This document shows positions 26,293-42,247 of a DNA stretch of 64,000 nt, piece by piece; position 1 is the first letter of the stretch; each line of letters opens with the position of its first letter. This DNA comes from Candidatus Bathyarchaeia archaeon (lineage in GTDB: Archaea > Thermoproteota > Bathyarchaeia > 40CM-2-53-6). Location of the stretch: NCBI GenBank assembly GCA_050013255.1, contig JBEKFP010000003.1, forward strand, positions 96,001-160,000, in the 5' to 3' direction. The notes beneath the pieces are model-generated. The model made no database searches. It was not told the DNA's origin and saw nothing but the letters and a program-made list of their open reading frames with translations. Both the position numbers and the translations under genes were made by a program.

Positions 26293-26472
26293 GGGGCCGT
26301 CGTCTAGAAGAGACTGCTTAGCAACTCTCTGGACAACTTGGTCTGGGAACACGATTCCGCCAACAGGATACCAGAGCGCAAATGCGCGCGGTGAACCTGG
26401 GGCGCTGGCGTCCCTAAGAACGAAAAGTCTCAGGGCCAGAGGTCGTGGGTTCAAATCCCACCGGCCCCACCA
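26293..26472 (+). tRNA. tRNA-Pro(GGG) with four introns (26308-26336, 26345-26364, 26375-26395, 26411-26441) and encoded CCA
   Basis: Removing four BHB-bounded inserts gives GGGGCCG TC GTCT AGCTTGGTCTA GGAT A CCAGC CTGGGGC GCTGG CGGTC GTGGG TTCAAAT CCCAC CGGCCCC A CCA, a complete cloverleaf. Confidence 0.92.
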
Positions 26473-26610
26473 TCTAACGAACCGTCTACCCTCAGCGAAA
26501 TTGCAACATTCGCATTCCATCTCAAAAAGAACGGCTAACGAGACTCCACGATTAGAGGAACAGTCCAGACACTCAAAGCCATAGGAAGAAACGTAAACCT
26601 GTTAGAACGA
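26473..26610 (+). pseudogene. Integrase remnant fused to the tRNA 3' end
   Basis: IPPAPPSNEPSTLSEIATFAFHLKKNG*RDSTIRGTVQTLKAIGRNVNLL matches the N-part of 35049..36086; TAA at 26536-26538. Confidence 0.88.
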
Positions 26611-29400: not shown

Positions 29401-29444
29401 CATGATTCCCACGATTCGTGGATTCGAATCCCATCGGCCCGACA
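29401..29444 (+). repeat. att-like tRNA-derived repeat, type A (degenerate)
   Basis: catgattCCCACgattcGTGGAttcgaatCCCATcggcccgaca. Confidence 0.8.
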
Positions 29445-29531
29445 AAAATCAAGGCTTCACAAAGATAATTAACACAAAGGCGAGGATTAAGATACTGGAA
29501 ACAGGTTTCGTCCAGCCTTTGAGTTGGAAAC

Positions 29532-30848
29532 TTGCCCTTTCCCGATCCTAAGGCTCTTGTGGCACTGGCTATTTTCGTCGCAACTTATGGTGTTCTAGCT
29601 TTTCGCAATGTGAAAGGATGGAAGTTTCCAATTTGGCTGATTCTGCTGATTGGTGCAGCTGCGATGGTTTTGTCAGGGTCGATCAGTGTAACCGACGCCT
29701 ACAAGGCAGTTGACCTTCATGTCATTCTATTTCTCTTCAGCATGTTCACTCTCGTCACAGCACTCGACATCGCAGGCGTCCTGGACGCATTTACAACTAG
29801 GCTCTTGCTTAGGGCGAAAAAACCCGAGGACGTCTTGTATCTCACATTCTTCGGCTTTGCAGCAGCCAGCGCCGTTCTGATGAACGACACCCTAGCCCTC
29901 ATGGGTACACCAGTCATGATTTCGCTCGCCAAGAAGATGAAGATTTCCTCACGACCTCTTCTTCTCACCTTAGCATTCGCTGTTACTATTGGCAGCGCCG
30001 TAACACCGATGGGAAATCCGCAGAACTTACTCGTAGCTTTGGGCAGCGGAATGCGTGCCCCCGTTCTCACCTTTGCGAGATACCTCCTCATTCCTACAAT
30101 AGTCAACCTCCTGCTAACCTACTATCTTCTGAGGCATCAGCTCCGCAACGAGTTTGCGAAAGCACGAAAAGGTTTCCGTGACCTGGTCGATTTCGAAGCG
30201 TCAACACAGAAAGACGTGATGAAAGACGGTGGACTGGCAAAGCTTGCCATCTCTGTCACCTGTCTAACTATTGCGGCAATCTTTCTCATAAACATCCTTG
30301 AAGAGGCAGGTGTTCCAACGCCTTTCGGAATCGCAGAGGTATCACTTTTCGGAGCAGCCCTGCTTTTGGCCCTCTCCGGTCGAAGCAGGGAGATCATTCA
30401 ATCGATCGATTGGGGTATCCTTGTTTTGTTCGCTTCTCTCTTCGTGCTTACGCAGGCCGTTTGGGATAATGGGATCATCGCGGCGATGGCGAGCTACTTG
30501 CCTACGATCAGTGCTCAGAATCCGCATTCTTCGATACTCGCAATTCTGGTTTCTAGCGTTGGGCTTAGCCAAGTCTTGAGCAATGTGCCGATGGTTGCGC
30601 TCTATATTCCGCTCATGAAATCATTGAATTTTGGTCCCCAGAACGTGTACGCCTGGATTGCGCTTGGAGGCGGAAGCACGCTGGCAGGTAATTTCACGCT
30701 CCTTGGGGCAGCCAGTACCCTCATAATTATCGAAGAAGCTGAAAAACAAGGGCACACCTTAGGATTCTTCGACTTTCTAAAAATCGGGATCATCGTAACA
30801 GCGGTCACAGTCGGGGTGCTCTACTTCTTCCTGCTTCTCGTAAGTTGA
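29532..30848 (+). CDS. ArsB/NhaD (CitMHS-like) ion transporter
   Basis: MND, GSAVTPMGNPQN, LSNVP, GSTLAGNFTLLGAAS; many TM helices. Confidence 0.9.
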   Translation: MPFPDPKALVALAIFVATYGVLAFRNVKGWKFPIWLILLIGAAAMVLSGSISVTDAYKAVDLHVILFLFSMFTLVTALDIAGVLDAFTTRLLLRAKKPEDVLYLTFFGFAAASAVLMNDTLALMGTPVMISLAKKMKISSRPLLLTLAFAVTIGSAVTPMGNPQNLLVALGSGMRAPVLTFARYLLIPTIVNLLLTYYLLRHQLRNEFAKARKGFRDLVDFEASTQKDVMKDGGLAKLAISVTCLTIAAIFLINILEEAGVPTPFGIAEVSLFGAALLLALSGRSREIIQSIDWGILVLFASLFVLTQAVWDNGIIAAMASYLPTISAQNPHSSILAILVSSVGLSQVLSNVPMVALYIPLMKSLNFGPQNVYAWIALGGGSTLAGNFTLLGAASTLIIIEEAEKQGHTLGFFDFLKIGIIVTAVTVGVLYFFLLLVS

Positions 30849-30853
30849 GTTGA

Positions 30854-30924
30854 TTCTCAGTATCGAGGGTTCGAGAGTCTCATTGGTCCCACGATTTGTG
30901 GGTTCAACTCCCATCGACTCCACG
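30854..30924 (+). repeat. att-like repeats: partial type C (30854-30874) plus type A (30881-30924)
   Basis: ttCTCagtatcGAGGGTTCga; cattggtCCCACgatttGTGGGttcaactCCCATcgactccacg. Confidence 0.78.
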
Positions 30925-30937
30925 AGTGATTGGATGG

Positions 30938-31250
30938 GGTCTTGCTAGAACTCAGGAAGCAGAAACGGCTCAAAATGGGACGATTTAGAAGTAGCCCCAC
31001 CGTACATTACAATTAAGTCCCACCGGCCCCACCACGAATTCTTGCGGTTCACGCGGCGGGTCTCAGATGGCATGACTTGAGGGATTATTTCCACACATCC
31101 TGCGTGAAGGTTGGCATTCCACACCGTGTAGTCCATTTCATGCTTGGACATGTGGCTGAACGAGAGGATCATTTCAGGGACATGATGTCTCGCGACATTG
31201 ACTATCTGCGGAAGGAGTACCTCAAAGTGGAAACACAGTGTTTCGCCTGA
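30938..31250 (+). pseudogene. Tyrosine recombinase remnant interrupted by the tRNA 3'-end sequence (31018-31034)
   Basis: RWHDLRDYF...HFMLGH...DIDYLRKEY (HxLR and LGH motifs); upstream KWDDLE-like segment in another frame. Confidence 0.72.
31018..31034 (+). repeat. Exact 17-nt copy of the tRNA 3' end
   Basis: TCCCACCGGCCCCACCA. Confidence 0.85.
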
Positions 31251-31427
31251 TCAAAACGAATAGTAAAACCATCATGTGTGAATGAGGGCACTTTGTCTGA
31301 CGAGAAAATCCCACAGACCCAGAAACGTCCGGTGATCAATCCGCCAAGAACGGGTAGTACGGGAGGTTCCCTGAGATGTTATCGATGAGTCAAGCGAACA
31401 TGGCCATGACTATCCTGGCGCTAGCTT

Positions 31428-31778
31428 TTGTGGGGGTGGGCTGTCTGTGCGGCGATCATTGGAGTTGGAATGATGTTTTCTTCTCAGATCAACGCCCTGA
31501 TAGCGCACGCAATTGGAGCACCTGTCGTCTTTGCGATTATATCCTTACTCTACTTCAAGAAATTCAGGTATACAACGCCGTTACAGACCGCCCTGATTTT
31601 TCTTGCATTCGTTTTCCTGATGGATTTCTTTGTCGTGGCTTTCGCAATCATGAGGAGTTTCCAAATGTTCATGAGCGTTCTCGGAACATGGATTCCTTTT
31701 GCTCTGATCTTTATCTCGACCTATGCGACAGGAGTGTATGTGACGATGACGCAGCAACAGAAAGGGGGTCACGTGTGA
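31428..31778 (+). CDS. Small multi-TM membrane protein, possibly N-truncated or frameshifted
   Basis: Four hydrophobic segments. Confidence 0.6.
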   Translation: MWGWAVCAAIIGVGMMFSSQINALIAHAIGAPVVFAIISLLYFKKFRYTTPLQTALIFLAFVFLMDFFVVAFAIMRSFQMFMSVLGTWIPFALIFISTYATGVYVTMTQQQKGGHV

Positions 31779-32482
31779 GAACTTTGGGAATGGAGTCCAT
31801 TCTCCTTTTCGGCTTTTATTGCTTCTTCTAGTTTCCTTTCTAACTCAGCAACTTCTTTTCTTTTTTCTGTTAGTTGTTCGGCAAGCAGGACTTTTAGTTT
31901 GGCTTTTTTTTGAACCGTCAAATAATATCCTTTTTCAATCTCTTTCCCTCCAGTCAATGCTGTTGCATTTTTAGAGCCGAATACAATAAGTTCTCCCGGA
32001 TTGGCCTCCAAGAATGCGGTGTTTGCAAGCACTTCTGATGCGTCTGCAAGTCTTTTGCCTTTATCTACGGCCTTTTCGACCTTAGTTGGAGGATCTGTTG
32101 AACTTACTTTTTTCTTTGCAAAGCTCAAGTTTCCGGCTTCGTCAACCTGCACCACCCGAGCACGAAAGCCGCCCCCGATGCCCGAAAAGATGCTAACCAT
32201 GCCCCTGCCGTTTTTGTGGTAGTAGACGCCCGCGGCCAAAGGCCTTCCAGCCCTTATGCTTTCAGTAGCATTCTTGTAAAAAAAAGTTCTTTGGCTCCAT
32301 TTAGTGCCTTCTGCAAAGGCTTCATCACTAGTTACTTTAGTAGCAAGTACTTTTGATTCTGTCCTTTCTCTTGCGGATGCGCTCATATTATCACCTTGAA
32401 ATTTCACTGATAATAAGGGTGCTGCCTTTCGATAGTTCACCATGCTCACGATGTCGAATGAACAGATGATTCGATAAGGCAT
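31769..32482 (-). CDS. Lys/Glu-rich hypothetical protein (likely start ATG 32387)
   Basis: Long ORF with AGGTGA before MSASARER; AT-richer than flanks. Confidence 0.6.
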   Translation of the reverse strand: MPYRIICSFDIVSMVNYRKAAPLLSVKFQGDNMSASARERTESKVLATKVTSDEAFAEGTKWSQRTFFYKNATESIRAGRPLAAGVYYHKNGRGMVSIFSGIGGGFRARVVQVDEAGNLSFAKKKVSSTDPPTKVEKAVDKGKRLADASEVLANTAFLEANPGELIVFGSKNATALTGGKEIEKGYYLTVQKKAKLKVLLAEQLTEKRKEVAELERKLEEAIKAEKENGLHSQSSHT

Positions 32483-32489
32483 TCAAGCT

Positions 32490-32653
32490 TCCTCCCGCAC
32501 AATATATTGTGCTGAAGTCCCACCCCCACGCCCCACGACGTGCACCTGTTGCGTTAAGGGCTAGAATGCGGCTAGTCGACTTCACGGGCTTCGAAAGAAA
32601 CCGACTTTATGCGGAAGGAATACGCCAAAGTCGAAAAACGGTTCTTCGTATGA
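32490..32653 (+). pseudogene. Second remnant of the 30938-type integrase
   Basis: YIVLKSH resembles YITIKSH; ETDFMRKEYAKVEKRFFV* resembles DIDYLRKEYLKVETQCFA*. Confidence 0.55.
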
Positions 32654-32816
32654 GTGTTGTCCGTTAATGCTATTTGGGCGTGTGGAGTAGTGATTGCGTT
32701 CGACGGGAGAGTGGCCCTTGGTCTGGTTGCAAACGACCTGACGAAGTGGTCTAACCTTCATATGAAAACATGCGGGGGTTGCCAAACCTTCGCTTGTTTA
32801 ACTTGGCTAACAATCC

Positions 32817-32873
32817 GTGGAACCCTCATAGAACCCACGATATTGGTGGGTTCGTATCCCACGGGCCCCACCA
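32817..32873 (+). repeat. att-like repeat, type B
   Basis: gtggaaccctcataGAACCCACgatattgGTGGGTTCgtatcccacgggccccacca; 54/57 identical to 42134-42190. Confidence 0.9.
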
Positions 32874-33057
32874 AAAATTTATTAATTTCACGAACCCGCA
32901 ACAATCACGGACAATTCCCTGATGGCCTTTTGACTCGTTGCTTAACTTTCGGTTTCACGAAATTAACCGACATCAGTCGAAGAGTTCAGAGAACCGTAAC
33001 CCTAGAAAGTAGTCAGATGACTCAAGAAACCCATATATTCTCAGTGTTGGTGAACTG

Positions 33058-34941
33058 TTGAAAGGGCTTGACTTGCTCAAGTCGCTTTTCATGCTAGTTC
33101 TAATCCTTTTCACATCAAGTGTGGTCTATGTTGCTGGTTCAACCCCGTCTTCGCCGAATCTGACAGTCGCAGAGATATACCCAACATGGAATGAGCAGGC
33201 GTCTACTCCAATCCTTCCGGGTTCGAAGGAGCAATTCCGTATCTACGTTCTGGTGACTAATTCGGGTGGCTACGAACCGCGGAACGCCACCTTGAACCTC
33301 AAGGTCTCATGGCAAGGAGCAAATGCCCAGGGACCAACCGAATATCAAGACAGCGTTGATGTGAAAAGTGGATCTGATGCTTTTGCCTACTTCGGACCGT
33401 TTGTAGCGGATTCGCCCACGAATATGACGGTGCTGGCCACTATTAACCCGAATCGCACCATTCAGGAATCAGATTATTCTGACAACGGCATGAGTGCCAC
33501 GTTCCACGTTGGTAAACTGTTTCCAACGGTCTCCCTTTTATCCGCTGGAACTCTTTGGCACGAAAACGAGACGCCGTCATTTTACTATACCTCTAGCGTT
33601 AGTTCTAGTGGTAACTATGAGAATCGGCTTCACGTCACGATGTCCCGCAACGGAGAAATTGTTGCAGTCCGCTCGGATTCTGGGCACATCAGTCTTTACA
33701 AGAACGGGACATTGATTTACGATCTACAGTCTACAACATTCTCGGATTCTGCTCTTTCGGATTCCGGAAAATACTTCGCCGTGAAGACTGACTCCATCAA
33801 ATTATTCGATGTGGATCAACTTGCTATGGGCAACAAGGCCCCGCTTGCTTCTGTCTCCGGAATGACAAAACTGGGGATGCTATCCTTCTGGAGGGTCGCG
33901 GTATCTGACAATGGCACGTTGGCGATTGCTGGATTCGCGAACTCAATCTTGAGCTTTGGTATCCTCAAAGTAATCGGCGACCCACAAAGATTCCAAGACT
34001 TTGGGACGGGAGTCTCGTGGGGGAAAGTTTTCGACGGAGATTCCCCGCATTTCGGTCCGAACTTTTATTATCTTATAGAAAGCCTAAGCTTTGACGACAC
34101 TGGTCAACTTCTGGTCGGACTAAGTGGATTTTTTGTTGGCAACCCCCATTCGCTGTCAAGACTTTACGGACCTAATCCATGGTTATACCTACTCGATTCT
34201 CTTGGAAATGTTGTATGGACTGGAAACGTTTCATCACGCGTCTCCGAGGATAGTGCAATTTCCTCCGATGGAAAGGCCCTGCTCACAGCCACGGATGACG
34301 GCCGTATCCATTACTTCGATAGATCAACAAACACCAATTTCAGTTTCTTCCTGGGGTTCAACACAGGGCCGAAGGGAAGCATAGGGACGAGCAATTCCCA
34401 GTTTGCGATTTCTCCTACCGGCGACTATCTAGCTGTAGCGGATTCGTCGAGCATCTACATCTTGGACGCAACCGGGGCACCGCTCTTCATGTTCCCCATG
34501 TCAAATGTCACTAGTCTCGCCCTTGGCGGAGGCTATCTCGTGGCTGGAAGATTAGGCGGTGCCGAGGAAATTTCTCTTTGGCAACCTGTTGATCAGGCAA
34601 TCGTTGAAGCTCAATCCCTCATAAACCAGGCACTTGGTGCGGGAGCCAACGTGACCCAAGCCGCGTCCATTCTGGCTTCAGCACAGGAGCAGAGGCGAGA
34701 GGGTGAATGGTACAAAGCATATTCGTATGCTGAAAGCTCGATTATTACTGCCAATCAGGCGTTGGCTTCGAGAACACTTTTCGCTACAGCTACAACAAGC
34801 TCATTAACACTGCCCAGCGGGCCGCCTGCCGAATTGCTCCCGATCGCAGTCATCTTGCCAATTGGAATTGCAGTGGTCATTCTTGTTGCAGTAACCTTGC
34901 TTATTACTGTCAGAAGGAAACGTCGGAAGACCGCCGAATAG
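33058..34941 (+). CDS. Secreted CARDB + beta-propeller surface protein with C-terminal TM
   Basis: Signal peptide, INPNRTIQESDYSDN (CARDB), 'AISSDG/AISPTG' WD-like repeats, TM + RRKRRK. Confidence 0.8.
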   Translation: MKGLDLLKSLFMLVLILFTSSVVYVAGSTPSSPNLTVAEIYPTWNEQASTPILPGSKEQFRIYVLVTNSGGYEPRNATLNLKVSWQGANAQGPTEYQDSVDVKSGSDAFAYFGPFVADSPTNMTVLATINPNRTIQESDYSDNGMSATFHVGKLFPTVSLLSAGTLWHENETPSFYYTSSVSSSGNYENRLHVTMSRNGEIVAVRSDSGHISLYKNGTLIYDLQSTTFSDSALSDSGKYFAVKTDSIKLFDVDQLAMGNKAPLASVSGMTKLGMLSFWRVAVSDNGTLAIAGFANSILSFGILKVIGDPQRFQDFGTGVSWGKVFDGDSPHFGPNFYYLIESLSFDDTGQLLVGLSGFFVGNPHSLSRLYGPNPWLYLLDSLGNVVWTGNVSSRVSEDSAISSDGKALLTATDDGRIHYFDRSTNTNFSFFLGFNTGPKGSIGTSNSQFAISPTGDYLAVADSSSIYILDATGAPLFMFPMSNVTSLALGGGYLVAGRLGGAEEISLWQPVDQAIVEAQSLINQALGAGANVTQAASILASAQEQRREGEWYKAYSYAESSIITANQALASRTLFATATTSSLTLPSGPPAELLPIAVILPIGIAVVILVAVTLLITVRRKRRKTAE

Positions 34942-35031
34942 GCGCCTGGATGCCGAGAGGTTATCAGCCGTAAAGCGAGAGTCGGGCCGTCAATAACTAC
35001 CGTTCGTGTGCGTTAGAGCTTCGAAAATGGC

Positions 35032-35076
35032 CATTAGTCCCACAAATCGTGGGTTCAAATCCCTCCGGGCCCACCA
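35032..35076 (+). repeat. att-like repeat, type A left arm joined to a CCCTC-type right arm
   Basis: cattagtCCCACaaatcGTGGGttcaaatCCCTCcgggcccacca. Confidence 0.88.
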
Positions 35077-36086
35077 CCTTTGGCAACTTCAAGACTGCAA
35101 CTGACAATATTGCCGACCTAGTGGAACCCGCATGGAACCCACGATATTGGTGGGCTCGTATCCCACCGGCCCCACCATTTAACGAACCGACCCCACTCAG
35201 TGAACTAGCGGCATTTGCTTTCTATCTGAAGAAGAACGGCTACCGGGATTCCACGATTAGAGGAACCGTGCAGGCTCTAAAGGCGTTAACGCATCACGTT
35301 AACCCCCTAGACCCTGAATTAGTGAAAGGCTACCTAGCTAGAGCAGACTGTTCCATTAATCGAAAAGGGAAGGTTTGCGAGGACCTAGACCGGTTCTATA
35401 AGTACAAAGGTATTCAGTGGGCCAAACCGAATTATCAACGAGTAGATACTCTGCCTTTTGTTCCCACAACCCAAGAAGCAAACGACCTGATAGCCTGCCT
35501 TGGCCCGAAAATGTCCGTGTTCGCTCTTTTGCTGAAAGAAATAGGTTGCCGGTTCAATGAGGGTTTCGGCCTGAGATGGCAAGACATCAACGTAGAAAAT
35601 AGTACCGTAACGATTACTCCGTTGAAGGGGTCCTATGCAAGGCAAATGAAGATAAGCCCCAAACTAATGGGACTACTCAATAGCCTTCACAAGAAATGGC
35701 CAACATACGTTTTCAGAAATCATAAAATTGAATTGTGGAAATCCTCTAAGCGATTTAGAACCGAATACATGTTTCAGAGACGCAGAGCCTCAATCAAGCT
35801 GAATCAGCCCAGACTAAACCTAGTCAGTTTCAAGAGCCTACGACATCACTACGCATGTAGGCTCTATGAATCAACGAAAGATATTCTCTTTGTTCAAAGA
35901 CAGATGGGACATAGAAGCCTGTCAAACACGGTTCGCTATACTCGGATGGTCAATTTCGATGCTGAAGACGATTTCATAGTGAAAGCGGCCAAAAATAAGA
36001 GCGAAGCGGAACCTCTGATAGAAGCGGGATACCAATACGTCGTTACCACGCCGGAAGGTTACATGTTATTCAGTAAGAGGAAATAA
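35049..36086 (+). CDS. Tyrosine recombinase/integrase; start codon lies within the att repeats (GTG 35049 or GTG 35121)
   Basis: GCRFNE (R), LKGS (K), FKSLRH, QMGH, TVRY (Y). Confidence 0.93.
   Translation: MGSNPSGPTTFGNFKTATDNIADLVEPAWNPRYWWARIPPAPPFNEPTPLSELAAFAFYLKKNGYRDSTIRGTVQALKALTHHVNPLDPELVKGYLARADCSINRKGKVCEDLDRFYKYKGIQWAKPNYQRVDTLPFVPTTQEANDLIACLGPKMSVFALLLKEIGCRFNEGFGLRWQDINVENSTVTITPLKGSYARQMKISPKLMGLLNSLHKKWPTYVFRNHKIELWKSSKRFRTEYMFQRRRASIKLNQPRLNLVSFKSLRHHYACRLYESTKDILFVQRQMGHRSLSNTVRYTRMVNFDAEDDFIVKAAKNKSEAEPLIEAGYQYVVTTPEGYMLFSKRK
35121..35177 (+). repeat. att-like repeat, type B, inside the integrase ORF
   Basis: 56/57 identical to 42134-42190. Confidence 0.92.
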
Positions 36087-36088
36087 CC

Positions 36089-36160
36089 GAGTTGATAGAG
36101 GCGGGGTTCGACTTCATCTTGCAGAAAGATGGGTTAGCATATTTTAGAAAACGGAAGTAA
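36089..36160 (+). pseudogene. C-terminal tail of another integrase of the same family
   Basis: ELIEAGFDFILQKDGLAYFRKRK* parallels PLIEAGYQYVVTTPEGYMLFSKRK*. Confidence 0.75.
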
Positions 36161-36276
36161 GACCTTGATAGCGCCTCTTGATGGCGACTCATCACGACCA
36201 TAATGGCGCTAATAATGCCGATAATCGTATACATAAATTCCCACCCATTTCTACTTACCGATTAACATTGTTTTGG

Positions 36277-36377
36277 AATTTCTTAGTAGAGACATGGAGT
36301 CTCGCCAGGGGCACAATGGTTGAACCGCCTGTTAGCAGAAAACACTTGTGATGCCATAAGGACTACAAGGACTTTAT
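36277..36377 (+). repeat. Conserved post-integrase element, copy 2
   Basis: Matches 26623-26713, with a 23-nt identical core at 36330-36352. Confidence 0.8.
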
Positions 36378-36387
36378 TCTTGCGAAG

Positions 36388-36852
36388 TTGGGAGAGCTTG
36401 TAGATTACATCGAAGACCGAGATGGTCTCCGAGTCGTTTTGGGCTACTACTACATGACCAGTACCAGCGTAGACGCATTGCGAAGTAGAAGATTGTTTGT
36501 AGGATTCAAGGAACAGTTAAGACAGTTGGGCATTGAGATGGTGATTGTGGAGAAGCGGAATGATAAGTCTGGGAACATTGACCCTCGTCTGATCTCCGAT
36601 GCTTATAGACGCCTGCTTATTGAGAGGAAAGCGCCTTCAAACTTGGTTCTTGTGTGCGGTGATAAGGACTATGAGCCGATGCTCGTCGATTATGAGAAGC
36701 AAGGTCGAAGAGTAGCTGTATGCTTCTATCAACCGGTGGGCGGGGGCGCATCGATAGACCTATTGACCATCAGTGGAGCAGAATTCATCGAATTCACCAA
36801 TCCGAAACAATCTTGGACGCTTCAGAAATGCTCTCTTTTGCCGAGCTTTTGA
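36388..36852 (+). CDS. NYN (PIN-like) domain protein, probably N-truncated
   Basis: D..L..D, LVLVCGDKDYEPML...GRRV. Confidence 0.72.
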   Translation: MGELVDYIEDRDGLRVVLGYYYMTSTSVDALRSRRLFVGFKEQLRQLGIEMVIVEKRNDKSGNIDPRLISDAYRRLLIERKAPSNLVLVCGDKDYEPMLVDYEKQGRRVAVCFYQPVGGGASIDLLTISGAEFIEFTNPKQSWTLQKCSLLPSF

Positions 36853-36936
36853 CCTCCCAAAACATCGCTTTCCTTTACCGAGCAACATGAAGGAAGGCAG
36901 ATAAGTCATAAATAGACAGCGGTAAACCTCCTCAAT

Positions 36937-37734
36937 ATGAAGCACGTTCTGGTTCTTGTTACTGCGTTTCTTTTGCTCATCGTGACCCTACCTTCGATAA
37001 GGGGCCAAGTGAACAATCCGGTAGCTTATCCACTGTTAAACCAAGTTACTGTTGACGGAAAATACACCAGTCCAAGGGAATGGAACGATACGATTGTGTT
37101 CGAGGCGGTGGCGGGATTGGGCGAGACGGTGTACTTCAGCGCAAAGTACGATTCAACTTACCTCTACACCATCTGGGATTTCCCTGAGTGCAAAACATCG
37201 TTCACAGGCAGCGACACAAAGGGTGCAAACCAAGTATTACTCTACTTAAATCCTCTCAACAAGCGTTCAGCCACTGTTGATAATACCATGTACCGCATCG
37301 CTGCTTGGGAGTACGGTGCCCCCGTCGCTCGTGTCTCGGGCTCTCAGGGCTTGACAGGAGGCGGATGGGCAGAATGGGCTCATATAGACGGCCATTTCCT
37401 CGCTGCCTTGCAGTACACCTCTTCGCCACACTCTCAAACTCCCCATTTTGTCCTCGAACTTCGCATCGCATTAACATTCGCTAATCTGAAGTCAGCGACC
37501 ACAAATAGCAGCATCGGAATCGCCTTAGGATGGGTGGACAACTTTGGGAATGGCTTCGAGGTCGATTATCCAAGCGACTATAATTACAAGGATCCGAGTA
37601 CTTGGGGAACTATGTCGTTCTCTCACATGGCAGTACCAGAATTTCCTTTGAGTCCCACAGTGCCGTTCTTGGTCACGATTTTTGTCACAATACTCGCATG
37701 TAAGATAGCAAGGAAGAAACTCGAGGGGCGGTAA
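36937..37734 (+). CDS. Secreted CBM9/DOMON-like protein with PEF-CTERM anchor
   Basis: VDGKYTSPREW, ELRI, PSTWG; VPEFP + TM + RKK. Confidence 0.75.
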   Translation: MKHVLVLVTAFLLLIVTLPSIRGQVNNPVAYPLLNQVTVDGKYTSPREWNDTIVFEAVAGLGETVYFSAKYDSTYLYTIWDFPECKTSFTGSDTKGANQVLLYLNPLNKRSATVDNTMYRIAAWEYGAPVARVSGSQGLTGGGWAEWAHIDGHFLAALQYTSSPHSQTPHFVLELRIALTFANLKSATTNSSIGIALGWVDNFGNGFEVDYPSDYNYKDPSTWGTMSFSHMAVPEFPLSPTVPFLVTIFVTILACKIARKKLEGR

Positions 37735-37987
37735 GAACTCATCTTCGTTCCGCTGATCAATCAGCAACGTTATTTGTGGTCTAACCCCGACACTGTTGGG
37801 CAACCCCAACCGAGTCTGTTTACTGGAAACCAGTACTACATGAAGCTCTTCGACTCGTTTCAAAGTGTGCGTGATATGCTCTATGCCGGAATACTAAACG
37901 CTACTATGAGTATTTATTTCGCTGAAAGAAACAATCAATGAAAGTACACGACACGTGCTAGCCGTATTCAGATACAGCGTTTTGTAG

Positions 37988-38010
37988 CTCAATAATTGAG
38001 GGTTCGTACC
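37988..38010 (+). repeat. Partial type C att-like site
   Basis: CTCaataattGAGGGTTCgtacc. Confidence 0.55.
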
Positions 38011-38082
38011 GCTTCGAGCTATCTTTCTCGTGTCCTTGCATTGATAGCTACCGAAGTTTCTCGTGAATCTAGTTGGAGATGT

Positions 38083-38123
38083 CATTAGTCCCACGAATCG
38101 TGGGTTCAAATCCCACCGGCCCC
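38083..38123 (+). repeat. att-like repeat, type A
   Basis: cattagtCCCACGAaTCGTGGGttcaaatCCCACcggcccc. Confidence 0.92.
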
Positions 38124-38212
38124 TATTAAGAAGACTTTGTCGTCTGTTCACAGCCATTTTCGCTTGGAAATGTTCCGTCATAATTCATTTAATCGGGTTT
38201 GTAATGGTTCGG

Positions 38213-38587
38213 TCAGAACTGAGATTCGGAAAACATTCTCTCGAAAGAGGCTTGAGGTAAAGGTTTGCCTTTTGACAACAGTAACAACCGCTGTCTGAAC
38301 CTGTCGGTCTTCTTACCAGATATTACCAAGGCTACGAGGGCTATGATAGTCGAGAAGCCGAGAGAGAAGAGAAAAAACCCAACTGTTAATGTTGACCTGG
38401 CATTACTCAGCCAGGAGCTGGTCAAGCCCCCGAGTGAAAATATGAAAACAATCATGATAATATTGATGGCTTTATCAATCGTCAACGTTCGTGATTCTAA
38501 CGCAGCCCGAAGCACGTCCAGTTGCCATTCTGCTTTTCGGGAGGGCACGCCTCTAGTAGAACGCTTCCTCGCTGCCATCTTAACCAA
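38213..38587 (-). CDS. Two-TM hypothetical protein
   Basis: Two hydrophobic helices flanked by basic regions. Confidence 0.6.
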   Translation of the reverse strand: MVKMAARKRSTRGVPSRKAEWQLDVLRAALESRTLTIDKAINIIMIVFIFSLGGLTSSWLSNARSTLTVGFFLFSLGFSTIIALVALVISGKKTDRFRQRLLLLSKGKPLPQASFERMFSESQF

Positions 38588-38745
38588 CTGAGAATAGATC
38601 TCTCTCCCTCCTAAATATCATGTAGCATTGAAGTTGCTTTGCTCGCCACCGGAATTCGACATTAGGGTACGTGTGTACGTTTCGTAAATTGGAAAGACTC
38701 ATTTGGGGCCCATTCGTTATTCTACTTGATTCGAGTGACTAAGCG

Positions 38746-39576
38746 TTGGAATCCACGCCAGAATTGGTTCGCAAGTTTGCACCTGAGATATCGTTCAGCA
38801 AGAACGAACCATATTTCCCTTGTCCGATTTTCTTCAGTGGTGCTGACATAGTTAGTAACAGGGAGAAGTACGAACCGCTTACGCCAGACCAGAAAAGGAA
38901 TTTGATCTCTTGCTATTATCACGTTTCTCGTTATGAATCTCATACTGCATACGAGTACTGGTACTACTATGTTTACAACGATTATTCTGGAGGATGGGAC
39001 TTGGGTGCTCCAGACATACACGACCACGATATGGAATTTGCGATAGTGTACGTCGATAATGCATCGGGCACTGTATACGCTCTAGCATTAAACCAGCACC
39101 ATTGGCGAAATTGGGTTTGGATGTCAAATGATTTGAAAGTGTTTGCCGAAGAAGGAGGGCACGGTTTATTCCGAAAAAGGACTCTACTTGACTCTTGGAA
39201 ACCTGGTGGCCTCACAATCAAGGTAGACCCAAAGGAATCGGTTGAATCACTCCGCAACAAATTCATTGATCCCGAACCTGCGAATCTCATGGAAAATGAC
39301 GGGACAATAAAGGGCCAAACAGCGATTTTTCTGGGAGCGTGGGCTAAACCAAAGGTTCCGTGGGTTCGACAAGAGTATGTCTTTCCTATTTCGCAACTTC
39401 TAGCAGACGCTGATAAAGACAAGGCACGCATGCTTTCCGCAGCTCCTCGTGCTATGATGTACCCAAGAGAGATTACGCTTAGTATTCCCTACAACAAACC
39501 TACACGAAAAGAGAACTTGGATGAAGCACTTCGGCTCCAACTGATTTCGGATCATCAATACAAAGCCATGCTATGA
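38746..39576 (+). CDS. Vps62/NPP1-like domain protein
   Basis: KFAP...E.YFP, YWYYY..ND, HDHDME, GGHG pattern. Confidence 0.55.
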   Translation: MESTPELVRKFAPEISFSKNEPYFPCPIFFSGADIVSNREKYEPLTPDQKRNLISCYYHVSRYESHTAYEYWYYYVYNDYSGGWDLGAPDIHDHDMEFAIVYVDNASGTVYALALNQHHWRNWVWMSNDLKVFAEEGGHGLFRKRTLLDSWKPGGLTIKVDPKESVESLRNKFIDPEPANLMENDGTIKGQTAIFLGAWAKPKVPWVRQEYVFPISQLLADADKDKARMLSAAPRAMMYPREITLSIPYNKPTRKENLDEALRLQLISDHQYKAML

Positions 39577-40398
39577 CAGCTTACACTTGGGACAAAGCCA
39601 TGTCACACCTTGGGGTCTCTCAGGGTGATTCTTATTGTCGAGTTTGCCTTCCGGCCCCCGGAAGTCATGGTATAATTCACATTCCTTTCTGAAAGCATCC
39701 TCAGGAGACTTTGAGTATTCGAACTTAAACCGATCATATCTGCCTATGTACTCCTTCAAGCGAGCCTTCACATCGACATCAGTGCGACTCATAAATTGAA
39801 CATAGAAAGTCTTGCCCTTCTTGAGCCCGAGAACATATACTCCAGCCGAAACATTAGAAACTTCCTTGTCAATCGTGCCTTCATCAAGCGGAAACGAACC
39901 CCTCAAACCAGTACTCCGGCGTCGCTCCTCAGTTAAGAAAGACAGGTCGTCTTGACTTTCTCGTGAATCCCTTCTTACGAGAGCTAGGATCCCGGCAACT
40001 AGCAGCAAGAGACCCCCAACATAGAAACCTGAAGCAACTATGACGCCGATGATTCCGCATATCACTAGACAGATGCCCCAGTTTCTGGGCTTGCTCTTAA
40101 CAAGGACTGCTGCAACAAGTCCAATGATAGAAATCAGAGCGGAAACTGCGGCCTGCGCATAGAGAGTCGTTGGGTTTCCGGAGAAAGCCTCCATGAAACC
40201 TCCGAGGAAGACCAATACAGGTACGAATAGAAGCCCCAGCACTCCACCAATCAAACCGAGAATAAGTTCAGGCATCCGACTAATGGGGGGTTTAGATGCA
40301 GCTTGTGATGACTTCGCATTCCACATGTCTGCTCCACATTTCGGACAGAATCTCATCCCAACTGCAGTTGATTCGCCACAATTCGGACAAAAGGGCAT
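39571..40398 (-). CDS. Zinc-ribbon + multi-TM + GIY-YIG-like C-terminal domain fusion
   Basis: CPNCG..FCPKCG; TM bundle; GVYVLG...RL...ECELYH...NHP...CPKC. Confidence 0.6.
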   Translation of the reverse strand: MPFCPNCGESTAVGMRFCPKCGADMWNAKSSQAASKPPISRMPELILGLIGGVLGLLFVPVLVFLGGFMEAFSGNPTTLYAQAAVSALISIIGLVAAVLVKSKPRNWGICLVICGIIGVIVASGFYVGGLLLLVAGILALVRRDSRESQDDLSFLTEERRRSTGLRGSFPLDEGTIDKEVSNVSAGVYVLGLKKGKTFYVQFMSRTDVDVKARLKEYIGRYDRFKFEYSKSPEDAFRKECELYHDFRGPEGKLDNKNHPERPQGVTWLCPKCKLS

Positions 40399-40520
40399 TG
40401 GCTGAACCTCGCATCTAACCCTCTAAGCCTTCGTATTTCAAACTATGCAAGACGGCCATTTCCTTACCGCATGCGAAATCTTAAGATGCGGATTGATAGA
40501 CACGCAATACTCGGTAAGAC

Positions 40521-41216
40521 TTGCCTTTCTGTATGAAATGTGGAAGCGAGTTTGCTGCTGGCGTGAAATTCTGTCCATCTTGTGGCACGCCAGTGACCTC
40601 ATCAGATGCTTCAAGTCATCAAGAACGTTACGGCACTAGAAACGTCCAACAGAGCGCCAGTCCAATTTCTGTGCCGTCAAAACCAAGGAACCTGTCAGCA
40701 AAACTGCTGGCCTTGTTATTCATTGTGTTCATCTTGGGTGTAGGACTGGGGGCTGGTTCGACTCACAGCGGAACGACAACTGTAACGGAGACGACTCAGA
40801 CCACGTATACGTTGCCAATCATAGTCACGGCAGAAACTAATGTTACAGAATACAAAACTGCAATGTCAGCCATATTCTCCGAATTTCACAACATAACGAC
40901 TCAGACCGCAGATAACTTTCATGCGTTCAGTATCGGGCAGATGTCTCGAACTGAATTAATCTCATTCGTGAGCCAGCAGAAGGACAACCTCAAAGTTCTG
41001 ACGGAACGCACCCTCAGATTACACCCTCCCCCAGCCTTCGCCGAAGCCCATGTCCATGTCGTCAACGCCTTGAGCCTTTGCTACTCAGCGTTTACGCTTT
41101 ATGAAGATGGCCTTATCCAGAACAACCCATCGTTGATCACAGAAGGCAACGACTTCGTTAACGAAGCGACAAACGAACTGCAAACCGCTACGTCAATCCT
41201 CAATTCCAACACCTAG
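40521..41216 (+). CDS. Zinc-ribbon, single-TM protein with helical external domain
   Basis: CMKCG..FCPSCG, TM, Thr-rich linker. Confidence 0.75.
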   Translation: MPFCMKCGSEFAAGVKFCPSCGTPVTSSDASSHQERYGTRNVQQSASPISVPSKPRNLSAKLLALLFIVFILGVGLGAGSTHSGTTTVTETTQTTYTLPIIVTAETNVTEYKTAMSAIFSEFHNITTQTADNFHAFSIGQMSRTELISFVSQQKDNLKVLTERTLRLHPPPAFAEAHVHVVNALSLCYSAFTLYEDGLIQNNPSLITEGNDFVNEATNELQTATSILNSNT

Positions 41217-41308
41217 TCGCTTTTTCCTAATGTCTCAAGTTTCATTTTCTAGCGAAAGTCGAGCCATCAATAACGAGTGTGCGTAGGCGTTCGGGCTCTG
41301 ACATTGGT

Positions 41309-41352
41309 TATTAGTCCCACGATTTGTGGGTTCAAATCCCACCGGCCTCACC
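41309..41352 (+). repeat. att-like repeat, type A
   Basis: tattagtCCCACgatttGTGGGttcaaatCCCACcggcctcacc. Confidence 0.9.
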
Positions 41353-41441
41353 GCTTTCGTGGGTATAATCAGCAACGCCATAGATGGAAGTGGTTCATAC
41401 GGCGTGAGAAGTATGAACCGATTGCCAAATGTCGGAGCTAT

Positions 41442-41720
41442 TTACATAGAGCCAACGAATTTCTTCGCAGCCTCAAGAATTGCCTGTTCCTGTTGTTTGA
41501 CCATGTCTTCCAACTCTTTTGCCTTTGCCGGGTCAAATTTCGGCAATGCTTTGGTTATCTTAGCGGCAACTTGTCCAAGCGATTGTACATTTGCGTGAAA
41601 TTCTCTCTTCGTGTTCGATGTAGTAAGTTTCCGAAGCGCCTCTTGGAATTCCCGCTTGAATGCCTCGAAGTCTCCAATTGCCCCAGTTTGTGCCAAGCTC
41701 CACTCCTCAGCGAACCTCAC
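41442..41720 (-). CDS. Small helical hypothetical protein
   Basis: 92-aa ORF with amphipathic helical composition. Confidence 0.5.
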   Translation of the reverse strand: MRFAEEWSLAQTGAIGDFEAFKREFQEALRKLTTSNTKREFHANVQSLGQVAAKITKALPKFDPAKAKELEDMVKQQEQAILEAAKKFVGSM

Positions 41721-41800
41721 TCATTCGTGAATTATAAGAAGTTGGTTCGTCTCTTTATTTTATATCACTTTGCCTCCGCTTAACTCTGCGCCTTATCTCA

Positions 41801-42247
41801 TTGTTTAGTTTACAGCAAGCAATCATGAAAGAATTGAACTGCCCAATGTGTCTAAGCCCGTTATCGTTAGCGAGCTTAGAGCAAATTTGGCGAGGCCCAG
41901 ATTTCGAACATCGGTTAACGTACTACTGTCATCTGAACCTACTACTGCAATCTGAACCTCTAGGTCAGCATGCGGAGAGGTTTAAGATATTTGATATTGA
42001 GTGCAAAATTCAGCGAGACAATTGCGCGAGGGACTTACTTGACACTCGAACCCTCAATATTGAGGGTTCGTATCCCTCCGGCCCCTTCACGTTTCGAAGC
42101 TTTAGGACTGCGGCTGACAATGTCGTCAGCCTAGTGGAACCCGCATGGAACCCACGATATTGGTGGGTTCGTATCCCACCGGCCCCACCACTTTCCTCTT
42201 TTCGAAAACCGTCAGAGTCCAGAACGCGAGGAGGATTAAATAGTTAA
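41801..42247 (+). CDS. ORF reading through two att repeats; candidate int(N) fragment
   Basis: GSYPSGPFTFRSFRTAADNVVSLVEPAWNPRYWWVRIPPAPP matches the integrase N-terminus. Confidence 0.45.
   Translation: MFSLQQAIMKELNCPMCLSPLSLASLEQIWRGPDFEHRLTYYCHLNLLLQSEPLGQHAERFKIFDIECKIQRDNCARDLLDTRTLNIEGSYPSGPFTFRSFRTAADNVVSLVEPAWNPRYWWVRIPPAPPLSSFRKPSESRTRGGLNS
42047..42085 (+). repeat. att-like repeat, type C, with perfect 24-bp palindrome
   Basis: CGAACCCTCAATATTGAGGGTTCG tatccctccggcccc. Confidence 0.88.
42134..42190 (+). repeat. att-like repeat, type B (last copy seen)
   Basis: gtggaacccgcatgGAACCCACgatattgGTGGGTTCgtatcccaccggccccacca. Confidence 0.92.

Follow-up and report, generated by a model that had tools for sequence, protein, structure and literature searches.

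Attachment-site scars and one working copy of a tRNA-derived site in the genome of a peat archaeon

The locus described here combines a proline tRNA gene, an array of short sites that repeat the 3' end of this gene, and a tyrosine integrase gene, all lying in the window, i.e. the whole stretch of 64,000 nt that was analysed and whose forward-strand positions serve as coordinates throughout (Table 1). The last 28 nt of the anchor tRNA, comprising the T-arm, the 3' strand of the acceptor stem and CCA, form an identity block that is copied in every site. ARAGORN and Rfam report no tRNA or family at gathering score in the window, only tmRNA-like matches, all below threshold, in the region of the T-arm and the acceptor end, and the anchor tRNA was overlooked by them because of its introns. 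We also considered the sites themselves as full tRNA genes and rejected this, as almost all of them lack a 5' acceptor strand within 450 nt (L095, with a strand at 169 nt, is a possible exception); in real tRNAs the matching 5' acceptor strand is found 61-95 nt upstream.

Table 1. Elements of the array and their positions in the window
Feature	Position	Strand	Remarks
Intact multi-intron tRNA-Pro gene, array anchor, acts as attL	26293..26472	+	acceptor pairing GGGGCCG/CGGCCCC
Decayed integrase 5' end (P' arm) directly behind the tRNA	26479..26607	+	tblastn 70% identity, 43 residues
Type A site, decayed: left arm intact, middle GTGGA, right CCCAT	29401..29443	+	
Partial Leu-type fragment GAGGGTTC, 15 nt on type A site (left arm 30888)	30865..30923	+	
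Type B site: GGAACCC, GAACCCAC box, 7-nt spacer, T-arm with loop TTCGTAT	32819..32873	+	
Hybrid site, type A left half	35032..35076	+	
Tyrosine integrase ORF running through both sites	35049..36086	+	Pfam PF00589
Type B site fused directly to intact integrase body	35123..35180	+	
Fragment of partial type C/Leu type (37998) ahead of a type A site (left arm 38090)	37992..38123	+	
Type A site (left arm 41316)	41309..41375	+	
ORF in integrase frame through type C and type B sites; P-arm leader, candidate Int(N)	41801..42247	+	
Type C site: 24-bp palindrome, loop TTCGTAT, right arm CCCTC, acceptor-like end	42047..42091	+	
Terminal type B site (attR), then T-rich host flank	42136..42190	+	

Three classes of sites, each with a left, a middle and a right arm, had been proposed in a first-pass annotation, and all three are found where it had placed them, in numbers far above chance. 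Type A reads CCCAC-N5-GTGGG followed by the T-loop, with CATTAGT or a near variant as left flank, and has four exact copies in the window (30888, 35039, 38090 and 41316; 0.06 expected by chance). The five type A copies counted initially thus hold as these four and a decayed one at 29408 with the middle arm GTGGA, with the correction that the 35039 site is a hybrid: its left half is type A, and its right arm, CCCTC, together with the acceptor end is identical to the 3' end of the tRNA-Leu(GAG) of the same genome. Type B has 8-bp arms around the spacer GATATTG and occurs three times (32831, 35135 with one mismatch, and 42148; 0.04 expected by chance in the window), and, as first described, every copy is preceded by a direct GGAACCC, at 32819, 35123 and 42136; in the first of these sites an in-frame TAG separates the two direct repeats. 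Type C is represented by a single perfect palindrome (42047-42070), by partial copies at 30865 and 37998 (GAGGGTTC) and by one at 32820 (GAACCCTC), which lies within the direct repeat of a type B site; the same type C site is also present in genome G202. The mirrored T-to-A change reported for its three arms is indeed present and extends to a fourth pentamer at the acceptor end, which is CCCTT, not CCCAC.

The only attP-like junction in the window, with P arm, core and P' arm, is the type B site that continues into the integrase body. Here the attachment site lies within the integrase frame, and since the 28-nt tRNA-identical core occupies the first codons, integration splits the gene. As candidate start codon the ORF offers GTG, at 35121 within the direct repeat or else at 35049, and no start codon is found between CCA and the conserved N-terminal domain of the integrase; a P' box, GAACCGAC, follows 6 nt past CCA in the ORF. 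The enzyme is a plain two-domain, weakly XerA-like protein without a separate arm-binding domain: residues 56-302 span the whole XerA model, its best NCBIfam match, although below the cut-off of that model, and PF00589 alone was matched at E up to 0.01, with no match to Phage_integr_3 (PF16795). In other genomes, homologues of the integrase adjoin the 3' end of the same tRNA directly, and one homologue, P0005, begins with M-S-W-V, as if from an ATG within a 6-nt spacer. The P-arm linker in the candidate Int(N) ORF shows coding-like conservation in five other genomes, and no integrase lies within 2.5 kb of any left-arm site in the other genomes.

Taken together, the sites are attachment-site scars plus one working copy, and they represent attR-type junctions that arose when related mobile elements inserted one after another at the 3' end of a single proline tRNA gene. 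The intact tRNA and, behind it, the integrase remnant mark one end of the array, and the 41316 and 42148 sites are each followed by a flank of host type. The flank behind the 41316 site, which also follows sites L136 and L137, matches the flank of the unoccupied tRNA-Pro genes in the relatives L147 and L155, and this identifies the 41316 site as a true attR. The middle and right arms are the T-stem of the tRNA, and the left arm is derived from the element, in whose P arm it lies, at the 5' terminus of the integrase ORF: neither the anchor gene nor its orthologues in 17 relatives carry it. The left palindrome was rejected as the point of crossover with the tRNA for the classes with the loop TTCGTAT, as the tRNA would otherwise have gained this loop; the terminal attR sites with native flanks keep TTCGTAT, and all 18 tRNAs keep TTCAAAT.

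The left arm, CCCAC, which is lengthened to GAACCCAC in type B, type C and the class with a 6-nt spacer, is the reverse complement of GTGGGTTC; it precedes the core by 5-7 nt and falls within the translation start of the integrase or directly behind it. In a survey of 23 genomes of the genus it was absent from all 18 real tRNA-Pro genes, whereas it was perfect in 28 of 46 fragments and carried a G.T wobble in four more (10 fragments lack it), at a chance rate of about 0.3% per site; as the sites share descent, these counts exceed the number of independent events. The arm is kept in at least four P-arm lineages with otherwise diverged flanks, and it is absent from the attR sites that belong to other integrase lineages of this genome. 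It is real, element-specific and conserved in related arrays, and the lack of conservation that the first-pass annotation had held against its own reading did not occur. A distant integrase lineage that uses another tRNA (L070) has a similar arm, TCCAC with a 6-nt spacer. Depending on the P-arm lineage the pentamer is translated as N-P-R, N-P-P or, in another frame, E-P-T, or stands behind an in-frame TAG. Its retention in two frames and a non-coding context shows that the constraint acts on the nucleic acid rather than on the protein, and we therefore rejected a protein-coding cause.

As noted initially, the middle arm can pair with the left or with the right arm, but never with both, so that each site has two mutually exclusive hairpins; in minimum-energy folds of single-stranded RNA or DNA the left hairpin forms in nine out of nine cases. 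Three compensatory variants are found: all arms of type C are changed together in G000 and G202, GAA to GTA is mirrored by TTC to TAC in the contiguous integrase gene of L166, and L184 reads CTCAC/GTGAA/CTCAC. One lineage (L130, L141) is a counter-example, having a CCCAC left arm beside an intact GAGGG/CCCTC T-arm, and L177 and L135 carry mismatches, too. Whether the pairing strand is RNA or DNA cannot be read from the ratio of wobble to non-wobble mismatches, as all left-arm transitions give a wobble on the plus strand.

Based on these sequence comparisons we propose, with a probability of about 0.38, that the left arm may form a start-site stem-loop that rivals the T-arm and gates integrase synthesis. 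The effect of the arm would rest on base pairing within one strand, most likely that of the integrase mRNA, where the stem-loop would beat the T-arm fold and cover or present the start codon, and might in this way throttle or gate integrase synthesis and strip the tRNA-like fold from the mRNA. The spacer lengths would correspond to separate P-arm lineages, each with the start codon kept in frame. Several 6-nt sites have an ATG in the loop, TTG is found in GATTT spacers, and the contiguous gene of L166 has a TTG start that overlaps the stem. In type B the likely start is 12 nt ahead of the stem, and occlusion would thus be indirect. Across 11 sites, the codon located in the direct repeat is always GTG, ATG or TTG and never CTG; the mere presence of a start codon carries little weight, being expected by chance in about 50% of cases.

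Alternatively, GAACCCAC/GTGGGTTC may be a recognition box that the integrase reads on duplex DNA, as the first-pass annotation had suggested with its extra recombinase-binding boxes; we regard this as somewhat unlikely. In attP the additional boxes would be the left arm, the direct GGAACCC further upstream and, 6 nt past CCA, a third copy in the P' arm, and they would help to build the synaptic complex or distinguish attP and attR from the tRNA. Several features are in line with such a role: the box occurs three times directly and once inverted around the core, the left and P' copies have an equal spacing of 6-7 nt from the 28-nt block, and the 36 nt from direct repeat to spacer are identical in the 35135 and 42148 sites (the linker further left is about 70-75% identical) and nearly invariant across genomes. 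Moreover, type C and the 6-nt class, with 8-9 bp arms and an AT-rich 6-nt spacer, share the geometry of archaeal dif sites (PMC8371274), and XerA is the best named match of the integrase. However, a rigid dimer should not tolerate a 2-bp difference in spacing from class to class (5, 6 and 7 nt all occur), the enzyme has no domain for binding such arms, and no single binding mode can fit both the left and the T-arm palindromes, as they present different sequences outward from their spacers. Likewise, the P' copy encodes a conserved E-P-T and does not track the T-stem in L062, and the symmetric change in L166 would be unexpected for a protein contact. On the sequences at hand, the variable spacing and the compensatory changes lean towards pairing rather than a recombinase-binding box.

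The left arm might also be a by-product of history without function, which we consider unlikely: capture of the tRNA segment in an integrase 5' end starting with M-E-P-T would have duplicated an 8-mer on both sides, and template-switch correction of quasi-palindromes would have kept the complementarity perfect. Such templated correction can produce compensatory changes without selection, and perfect palindromes of the type C kind are its expected product. The reading frames are compatible with this origin, since the codons of the second direct repeat are ATG-GAA-CCC-AC and those of the P' copy AAC-GAA-CCC-ACC (N-E-P-T), the insert of the 6-nt class is 48 nt and in frame, and type B, whose insert is out of frame, has another start, duplicated 11 nt upstream, that makes up for it. 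Against this origin stand type A, which retains CCCAC without the GAA extension behind a stop codon, the persistence of the arm in several diverged lineages and the similar arm of L070.

Still more doubtful is an extension of our proposal in which the three-arm site is a two-state switch of both DNA and RNA and the T-loop variants define heterospecific classes that permit scar-based cassette exchange. The choice between left stem and T-arm fold would determine translation of the integrase or the ability of the site to recombine, and TTCGTAT and TTCAAAT would act as compatibility classes, allowing elements and gene blocks to recombine at old scars while the tRNA stays untouched. Mesophilic archaea would then have a cassette-exchange system that is built from a tRNA fragment and driven by a self-splitting integrase of XerA-like kind and independent origin.

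It is very unlikely that the left arm and 5-nt spacer of type A are relics of the 3' strand of the anticodon stem and of the variable loop of a parent tRNA, the site being a longer tRNA 3' half. Five nucleotides are a normal length for a variable loop, many type A spacers end in TC (cf. AGGTC in the tRNA), and real tRNAs of related families, called tRNA-Pro(UGG) from an anticodon-loop-like stretch in the upstream flank, show CCCGC-6 nt-GTGGG at the matching place; yet none of the 23 genomes has a tRNA of that sequence, the 7 nt ahead of the arm form no anticodon loop, and types B and C are left unexplained. We hardly give credence to an integron-like system in which an attI-like site captures and shuffles cassettes with attC-like single-stranded hairpin substrates, the first-pass annotation having likened the sites to attI and attC: one or two unrelated genes do lie between successive sites, the sites can form hairpins and a single intact integrase is present, but this enzyme scores 60 bits on the integron-integrase model TIGR02249 (cut-off 265), an attC consensus is missing, the intervening genes lie on both strands, and the tRNA identity blocks, native tRNA flanks and the integrase remnant behind the tRNA fit serial integration.

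tRNA genes are the commonest landing sites of integrating elements, and to our knowledge the element-side half of such attachment sites has rarely been examined in archaea beyond a few hyperthermophile models. Here, an arm on this side is conserved, co-varies with the neighbouring copy of the T-stem and overlaps the integrase start. If functional, it would be a simple built-in control of integrase expression or site choice and would help to account for the persistence of elements with self-splitting integrases and for their stacking into arrays. Moreover, the three spacer classes, the compensatory and the mismatched variants would constitute a natural set of substrates for assays, which may serve the study of uncultured but abundant peat and sediment archaea.

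Compared with known systems, the array resembles integron attI/attC sites in having hairpin-capable palindromes, imperfect or perfect, between short gene blocks and direct repeats beside one site near a tyrosine recombinase gene. The attC core consensus is GTTRRRY and its inverse at the cassette ends, whereas the sites here have GTTCAAA or GTTCGTA, in both of which the fourth position is C; they are derived from a tRNA with native flanks, have no IntI-type enzyme, and the ORFs between them have mixed orientations, unlike the one-orientation cassettes of integrons. Native FRT has a third repeat beside the core, and a third repeat adjoins the core here, too. With dif/XerA and FRT-type sites in general the array shares 8-9 bp inverted arms around an AT-rich spacer of 6-7 nt; however, its palindrome is not the crossover with the tRNA in the classes with the loop TTCGTAT, and its spacing (5-7 nt) is not fixed. 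In a dif-like XerA site the strands are cut at the ends of the spacer. Archaeal dif sites are two 11-nt inverted repeats with a 6-nt spacer (11-6-11; PMC8371274).

A closer likeness exists to the suicidal integrases of the SSV, pTN3 and pT26-2 type as presented in Badel et al. 2020 (PMC7253208) and the review PMC8371274: the integrase gene contains attP and is therefore split by integration, the elements target a 3' portion of a tRNA gene that includes the T stem-loop, which these authors regard as the core, a T-loop mismatch between attL and attR is tolerated, and related elements pile up and exchange Int(N) and Int(C) parts. The SSV-type enzymes form a monophyletic superfamily with the PF16795 domain (PMC8371274), whereas the integrase here is a XerA-like PF00589 protein with a very short N-terminal piece; an element-borne arm that pairs with the T-stem was found neither in the searched passages of the two papers nor by a full-text literature search. 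Finally, in tandem accretion at tRNA and tmRNA genes (sublocation scheme of Williams 2002; Islander, PMC4383910) an intact tRNA is likewise followed by displaced 3' fragments that mark element ends, with an identity block extending to the tRNA 3' end, but the fragments of the present array additionally carry a conserved inverted arm, fall into spacer classes and contain T-loop variants that differ from the tRNA.

The final 28 nt of one intact tRNA gene, from the T-stem through the T-loop and the acceptor 3' strand to CCA, recur in every att-like site of the array, so the T-stem accounts for both the middle and the right arm. This tRNA is followed directly by a decayed integrase 5' end, and the type B site at 35135 by an intact PF00589 integrase whose reading frame passes through the site; homologues of the integrase in other genomes and in metagenomes immediately adjoin the same tRNA. 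As the flank behind the site at 41316 and behind two sites of other genomes (L136, L137) is of the kind seen behind the unoccupied tRNA-Pro genes of relatives, these sites are true attR junctions. The layout fits serial integration and, taking tRNA anchor, integrase pieces and attR flanks together, the array is an accumulation of integrated, self-splitting ("suicidal") elements. The relatives retrieved via the integrase are Bathyarchaeia MAGs without exception, and tRNA genes with introns are numerous in this archaeal genome. The native flank of unoccupied tRNA-Pro genes (L147, L155; window 41353-41375) starts CTTYGTGGGTTCAGAA and so contains a further copy of the T-stem 5' half immediately after CCA.

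Upstream of the tRNA block a left arm forms a second palindrome with the T-stem 5' half, and the three spacer classes of the first-pass annotation are all present where it had placed them. Type A (CCCAC-N5-GTGGG) occurs in four exact copies against 0.06 expected by chance in the window, the supposed fifth, at 29408, being decayed. Type B, a 23-nt palindrome, has the three copies (0.04 expected) and the direct GGAACCC before each that had been claimed. For type C the perfect 24-bp palindrome (42047-42070) stood, but there are three partial copies (30865, 37998, 32820) rather than two. In single-strand folds of all sites tested, the left arm pairs with the middle arm and the T-arm does not form.

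Positions and attributes of features in the array and related sequences (window coordinates unless a contig or locus is given; G000, the window's own genome)
Feature	Position	Remark
Intact tRNA gene	26293-26472	acceptor stem paired
Leu-type fragments	30865-30877, 37992-38012, 35049-35076, 42047-42091	
TTCGTAT loops, types B and C	32846-32862, 35150-35166, 42062-42078, 42163-42179	
Third 8-mer box	35187-35194; L009, L010 (~6 nt after CCA)	integrase 5' end; GAACCGAC in the window
Cargo between sites	29532-30848, 36388-36852, 39571-40398, 40521-41216	CitMHS-family transporter, NYN-domain protein, two zinc-ribbon membrane proteins
More left-arm sites	G000 C1:954191-954218, C1:1306687-1306713, C1:414039-414055 (minus strand)	far from any tRNA-Pro gene
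Pro-type fragments without left arm (n=2)	G000 C1:122346, C2:295602	
Two further integrase paralogues	G000 C3:28337-29357, C2:259100-260077	~39% identical; directly behind other tRNA genes
P-arm lineage, 5-nt class		ATTAGT precedes arm
P-arm lineage, 7-nt class		two direct GGAACCC repeats
P-arm lineage, 6-nt class		flank containing AGGAAT
P-arm lineage, fourth class		GCATTGAA precedes arm

To trace the arm we tallied, from the match rows, an unbiased sample of T-arm plus acceptor matches of Pro type (matching the 3' end of tRNA-Pro) in 23 genomes of the genus. None of the 18 real tRNA genes carries a left arm, while 28 of 46 fragments have a perfect one 5-7 nt upstream, the remainder showing a G.T-wobble arm (4), one mismatch (3-4) or no arm (10); chance would give an arm at ~0.3% of sites. 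A 5' acceptor strand, sought upstream of the att-like sites, was absent with one possible exception (L095). Judged from these sequences, the left arm is non-tRNA sequence. It recurs in at least four P-arm lineages that differ in their flanks. Non-conservation in related arrays, named beforehand as the adverse outcome, did not occur. Since the pentamer stands in two different reading frames across lineages, or downstream of an in-frame stop, the constraint acts on nucleic acid, not peptide. In the P arms of the 6-nt class (L102, L137, L106, L097) the left arm is preceded, at a distance of ~10 nt, by a conserved inverted repeat peculiar to this class, ATTCCT ... AGGAAT.

The arms also change together. 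In type C the mirrored change in left, middle and right arms was confirmed and extends to the acceptor-end pentamer, and type C recurs in genome G202. At L166, GAA to GTA on the left is matched by TTC to TAC on the right, and the arms of L184 read CTCAC, GTGAA and CTCAC. L070, where an integrase of a distant lineage (39% identical) is associated with a different tRNA, contributes an independent instance of T-stem pairing by a left arm, with one wobble: three fragments (12050, 12163, 13833) read TCCAC-6 nt-GTGGG. A counter-example is provided by L130 and L141, where a CCCAC left arm stands beside an intact GAGGG/CCCTC T-arm, and single mismatches occur in L135 and L177. With three supporting events and one clean contrary lineage, all among related sequences, covariation is suggested but not proven.

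The integrase contains no arm-binding domain and the arm spacing differs by 2 bp among the classes, which, together with the compensatory changes, favours a role through pairing. This leads us to commit, with a probability of roughly 0.38, to a stem-loop that would form at the 5' end of the integrase, compete with the T-arm fold and thereby gate translation or conceal the tRNA-like fold. Binding boxes on duplex DNA are a somewhat less likely alternative, and less likely still is that the arm arose as a side effect of capture and quasi-palindrome correction. The initially proposed integron analogy (attI- or attC-like) failed every test made, i.e. integrase profile score, attC consensus and gene orientation between sites.

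The position of the arm relative to the integrase start can be read in several classes. At the first direct repeat, sites of the 7-nt class form a codon in frame with the integrase, which is GTG, ATG or TTG in 11/11 and CTG in none; several 6-nt spacers contain an in-frame ATG, and in the GATTT spacers of type A an in-frame TTG comes after a TAG. In L166 the P arm, the core and the integrase gene are contiguous, with a frameshift further downstream; TGA precedes the TTG start, and the left stem begins within that start codon. A further copy of the 8-mer GAACCCAC, coding for E-P-T, stands where the integrase body starts, 6 nt past CCA, and thus the tRNA block lies between two direct copies at equal spacing; L062 keeps this box despite the GTGAG T-stem of that element. 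The complete integrase gene at 35121-36086 was put together again by tandem integration from the P arm of the resident and the body of the incoming element. For the integrase paralogues behind other tRNA genes of G000, a matching fragment at C3:41756 suggests a 13-kb element.

An older Leu-type fragment (tRNA-Leu 3' end) lies 15-100 nt upstream of every Pro-type site, the best preserved being type C, and the intervening linker has a conservation pattern like that of coding DNA. The same two-fragment module is found in L107, L098, L132, L134, L125, L129 and L095, and attachment sites seem to be stacked within the integrase leader. The search for another tRNA with a GAGGG/CCCTC T-stem, proposed as a check, yielded tRNA-Leu(GAG) and also tRNA-Thr(CGT) in this genome, and the hybrid at 35039 matches the 3' end of tRNA-Leu exactly over its right half.

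All tRNAs have the T-loop TTCAAAT, whereas attR sites with native flanks have TTCGTAT. A crossover with the tRNA at the left palindrome is thus ruled out for the TTCGTAT classes, because the tRNA would otherwise inherit the T-loop of the element. The TTCGTAT loop of types B and C (TTCATAT elsewhere) lacks A58 and cannot serve a real tRNA. Across genomes the sites vary most at loop positions 4-5, which is what one would expect of an overlap region or of classes of heterospecific sites, and hybrids such as GTGGG-TTCAAAT-CCCTC have their junctions at the T-loop or just right of it.

Both the array and its self-splitting integrase are of known types. The apparent novelty is an arm carried by the element that is conserved, co-varies and forms a second palindrome together with the T-stem, with spacers of three classes; no such arm turned up in the searched passages of PMC7253208 and PMC8371274 or in a full-text search. 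The junction position of the hybrids agrees with the T stem-loop core put forward for the pT26-2 integrases; attL and attR differ in the T-loop there too (PMC7253208). Self-splitting elements have been described for hyperthermophiles (PMC7253208, PMC8371274), and the archaeal integrases of this kind covered by the latter all belong to the PF16795 family. In contrast, the enzyme of the window is a XerA-like PF00589 protein without the PF16795 domain, which would mean an independent origin of self-splitting integration in a non-hyperthermophile lineage.
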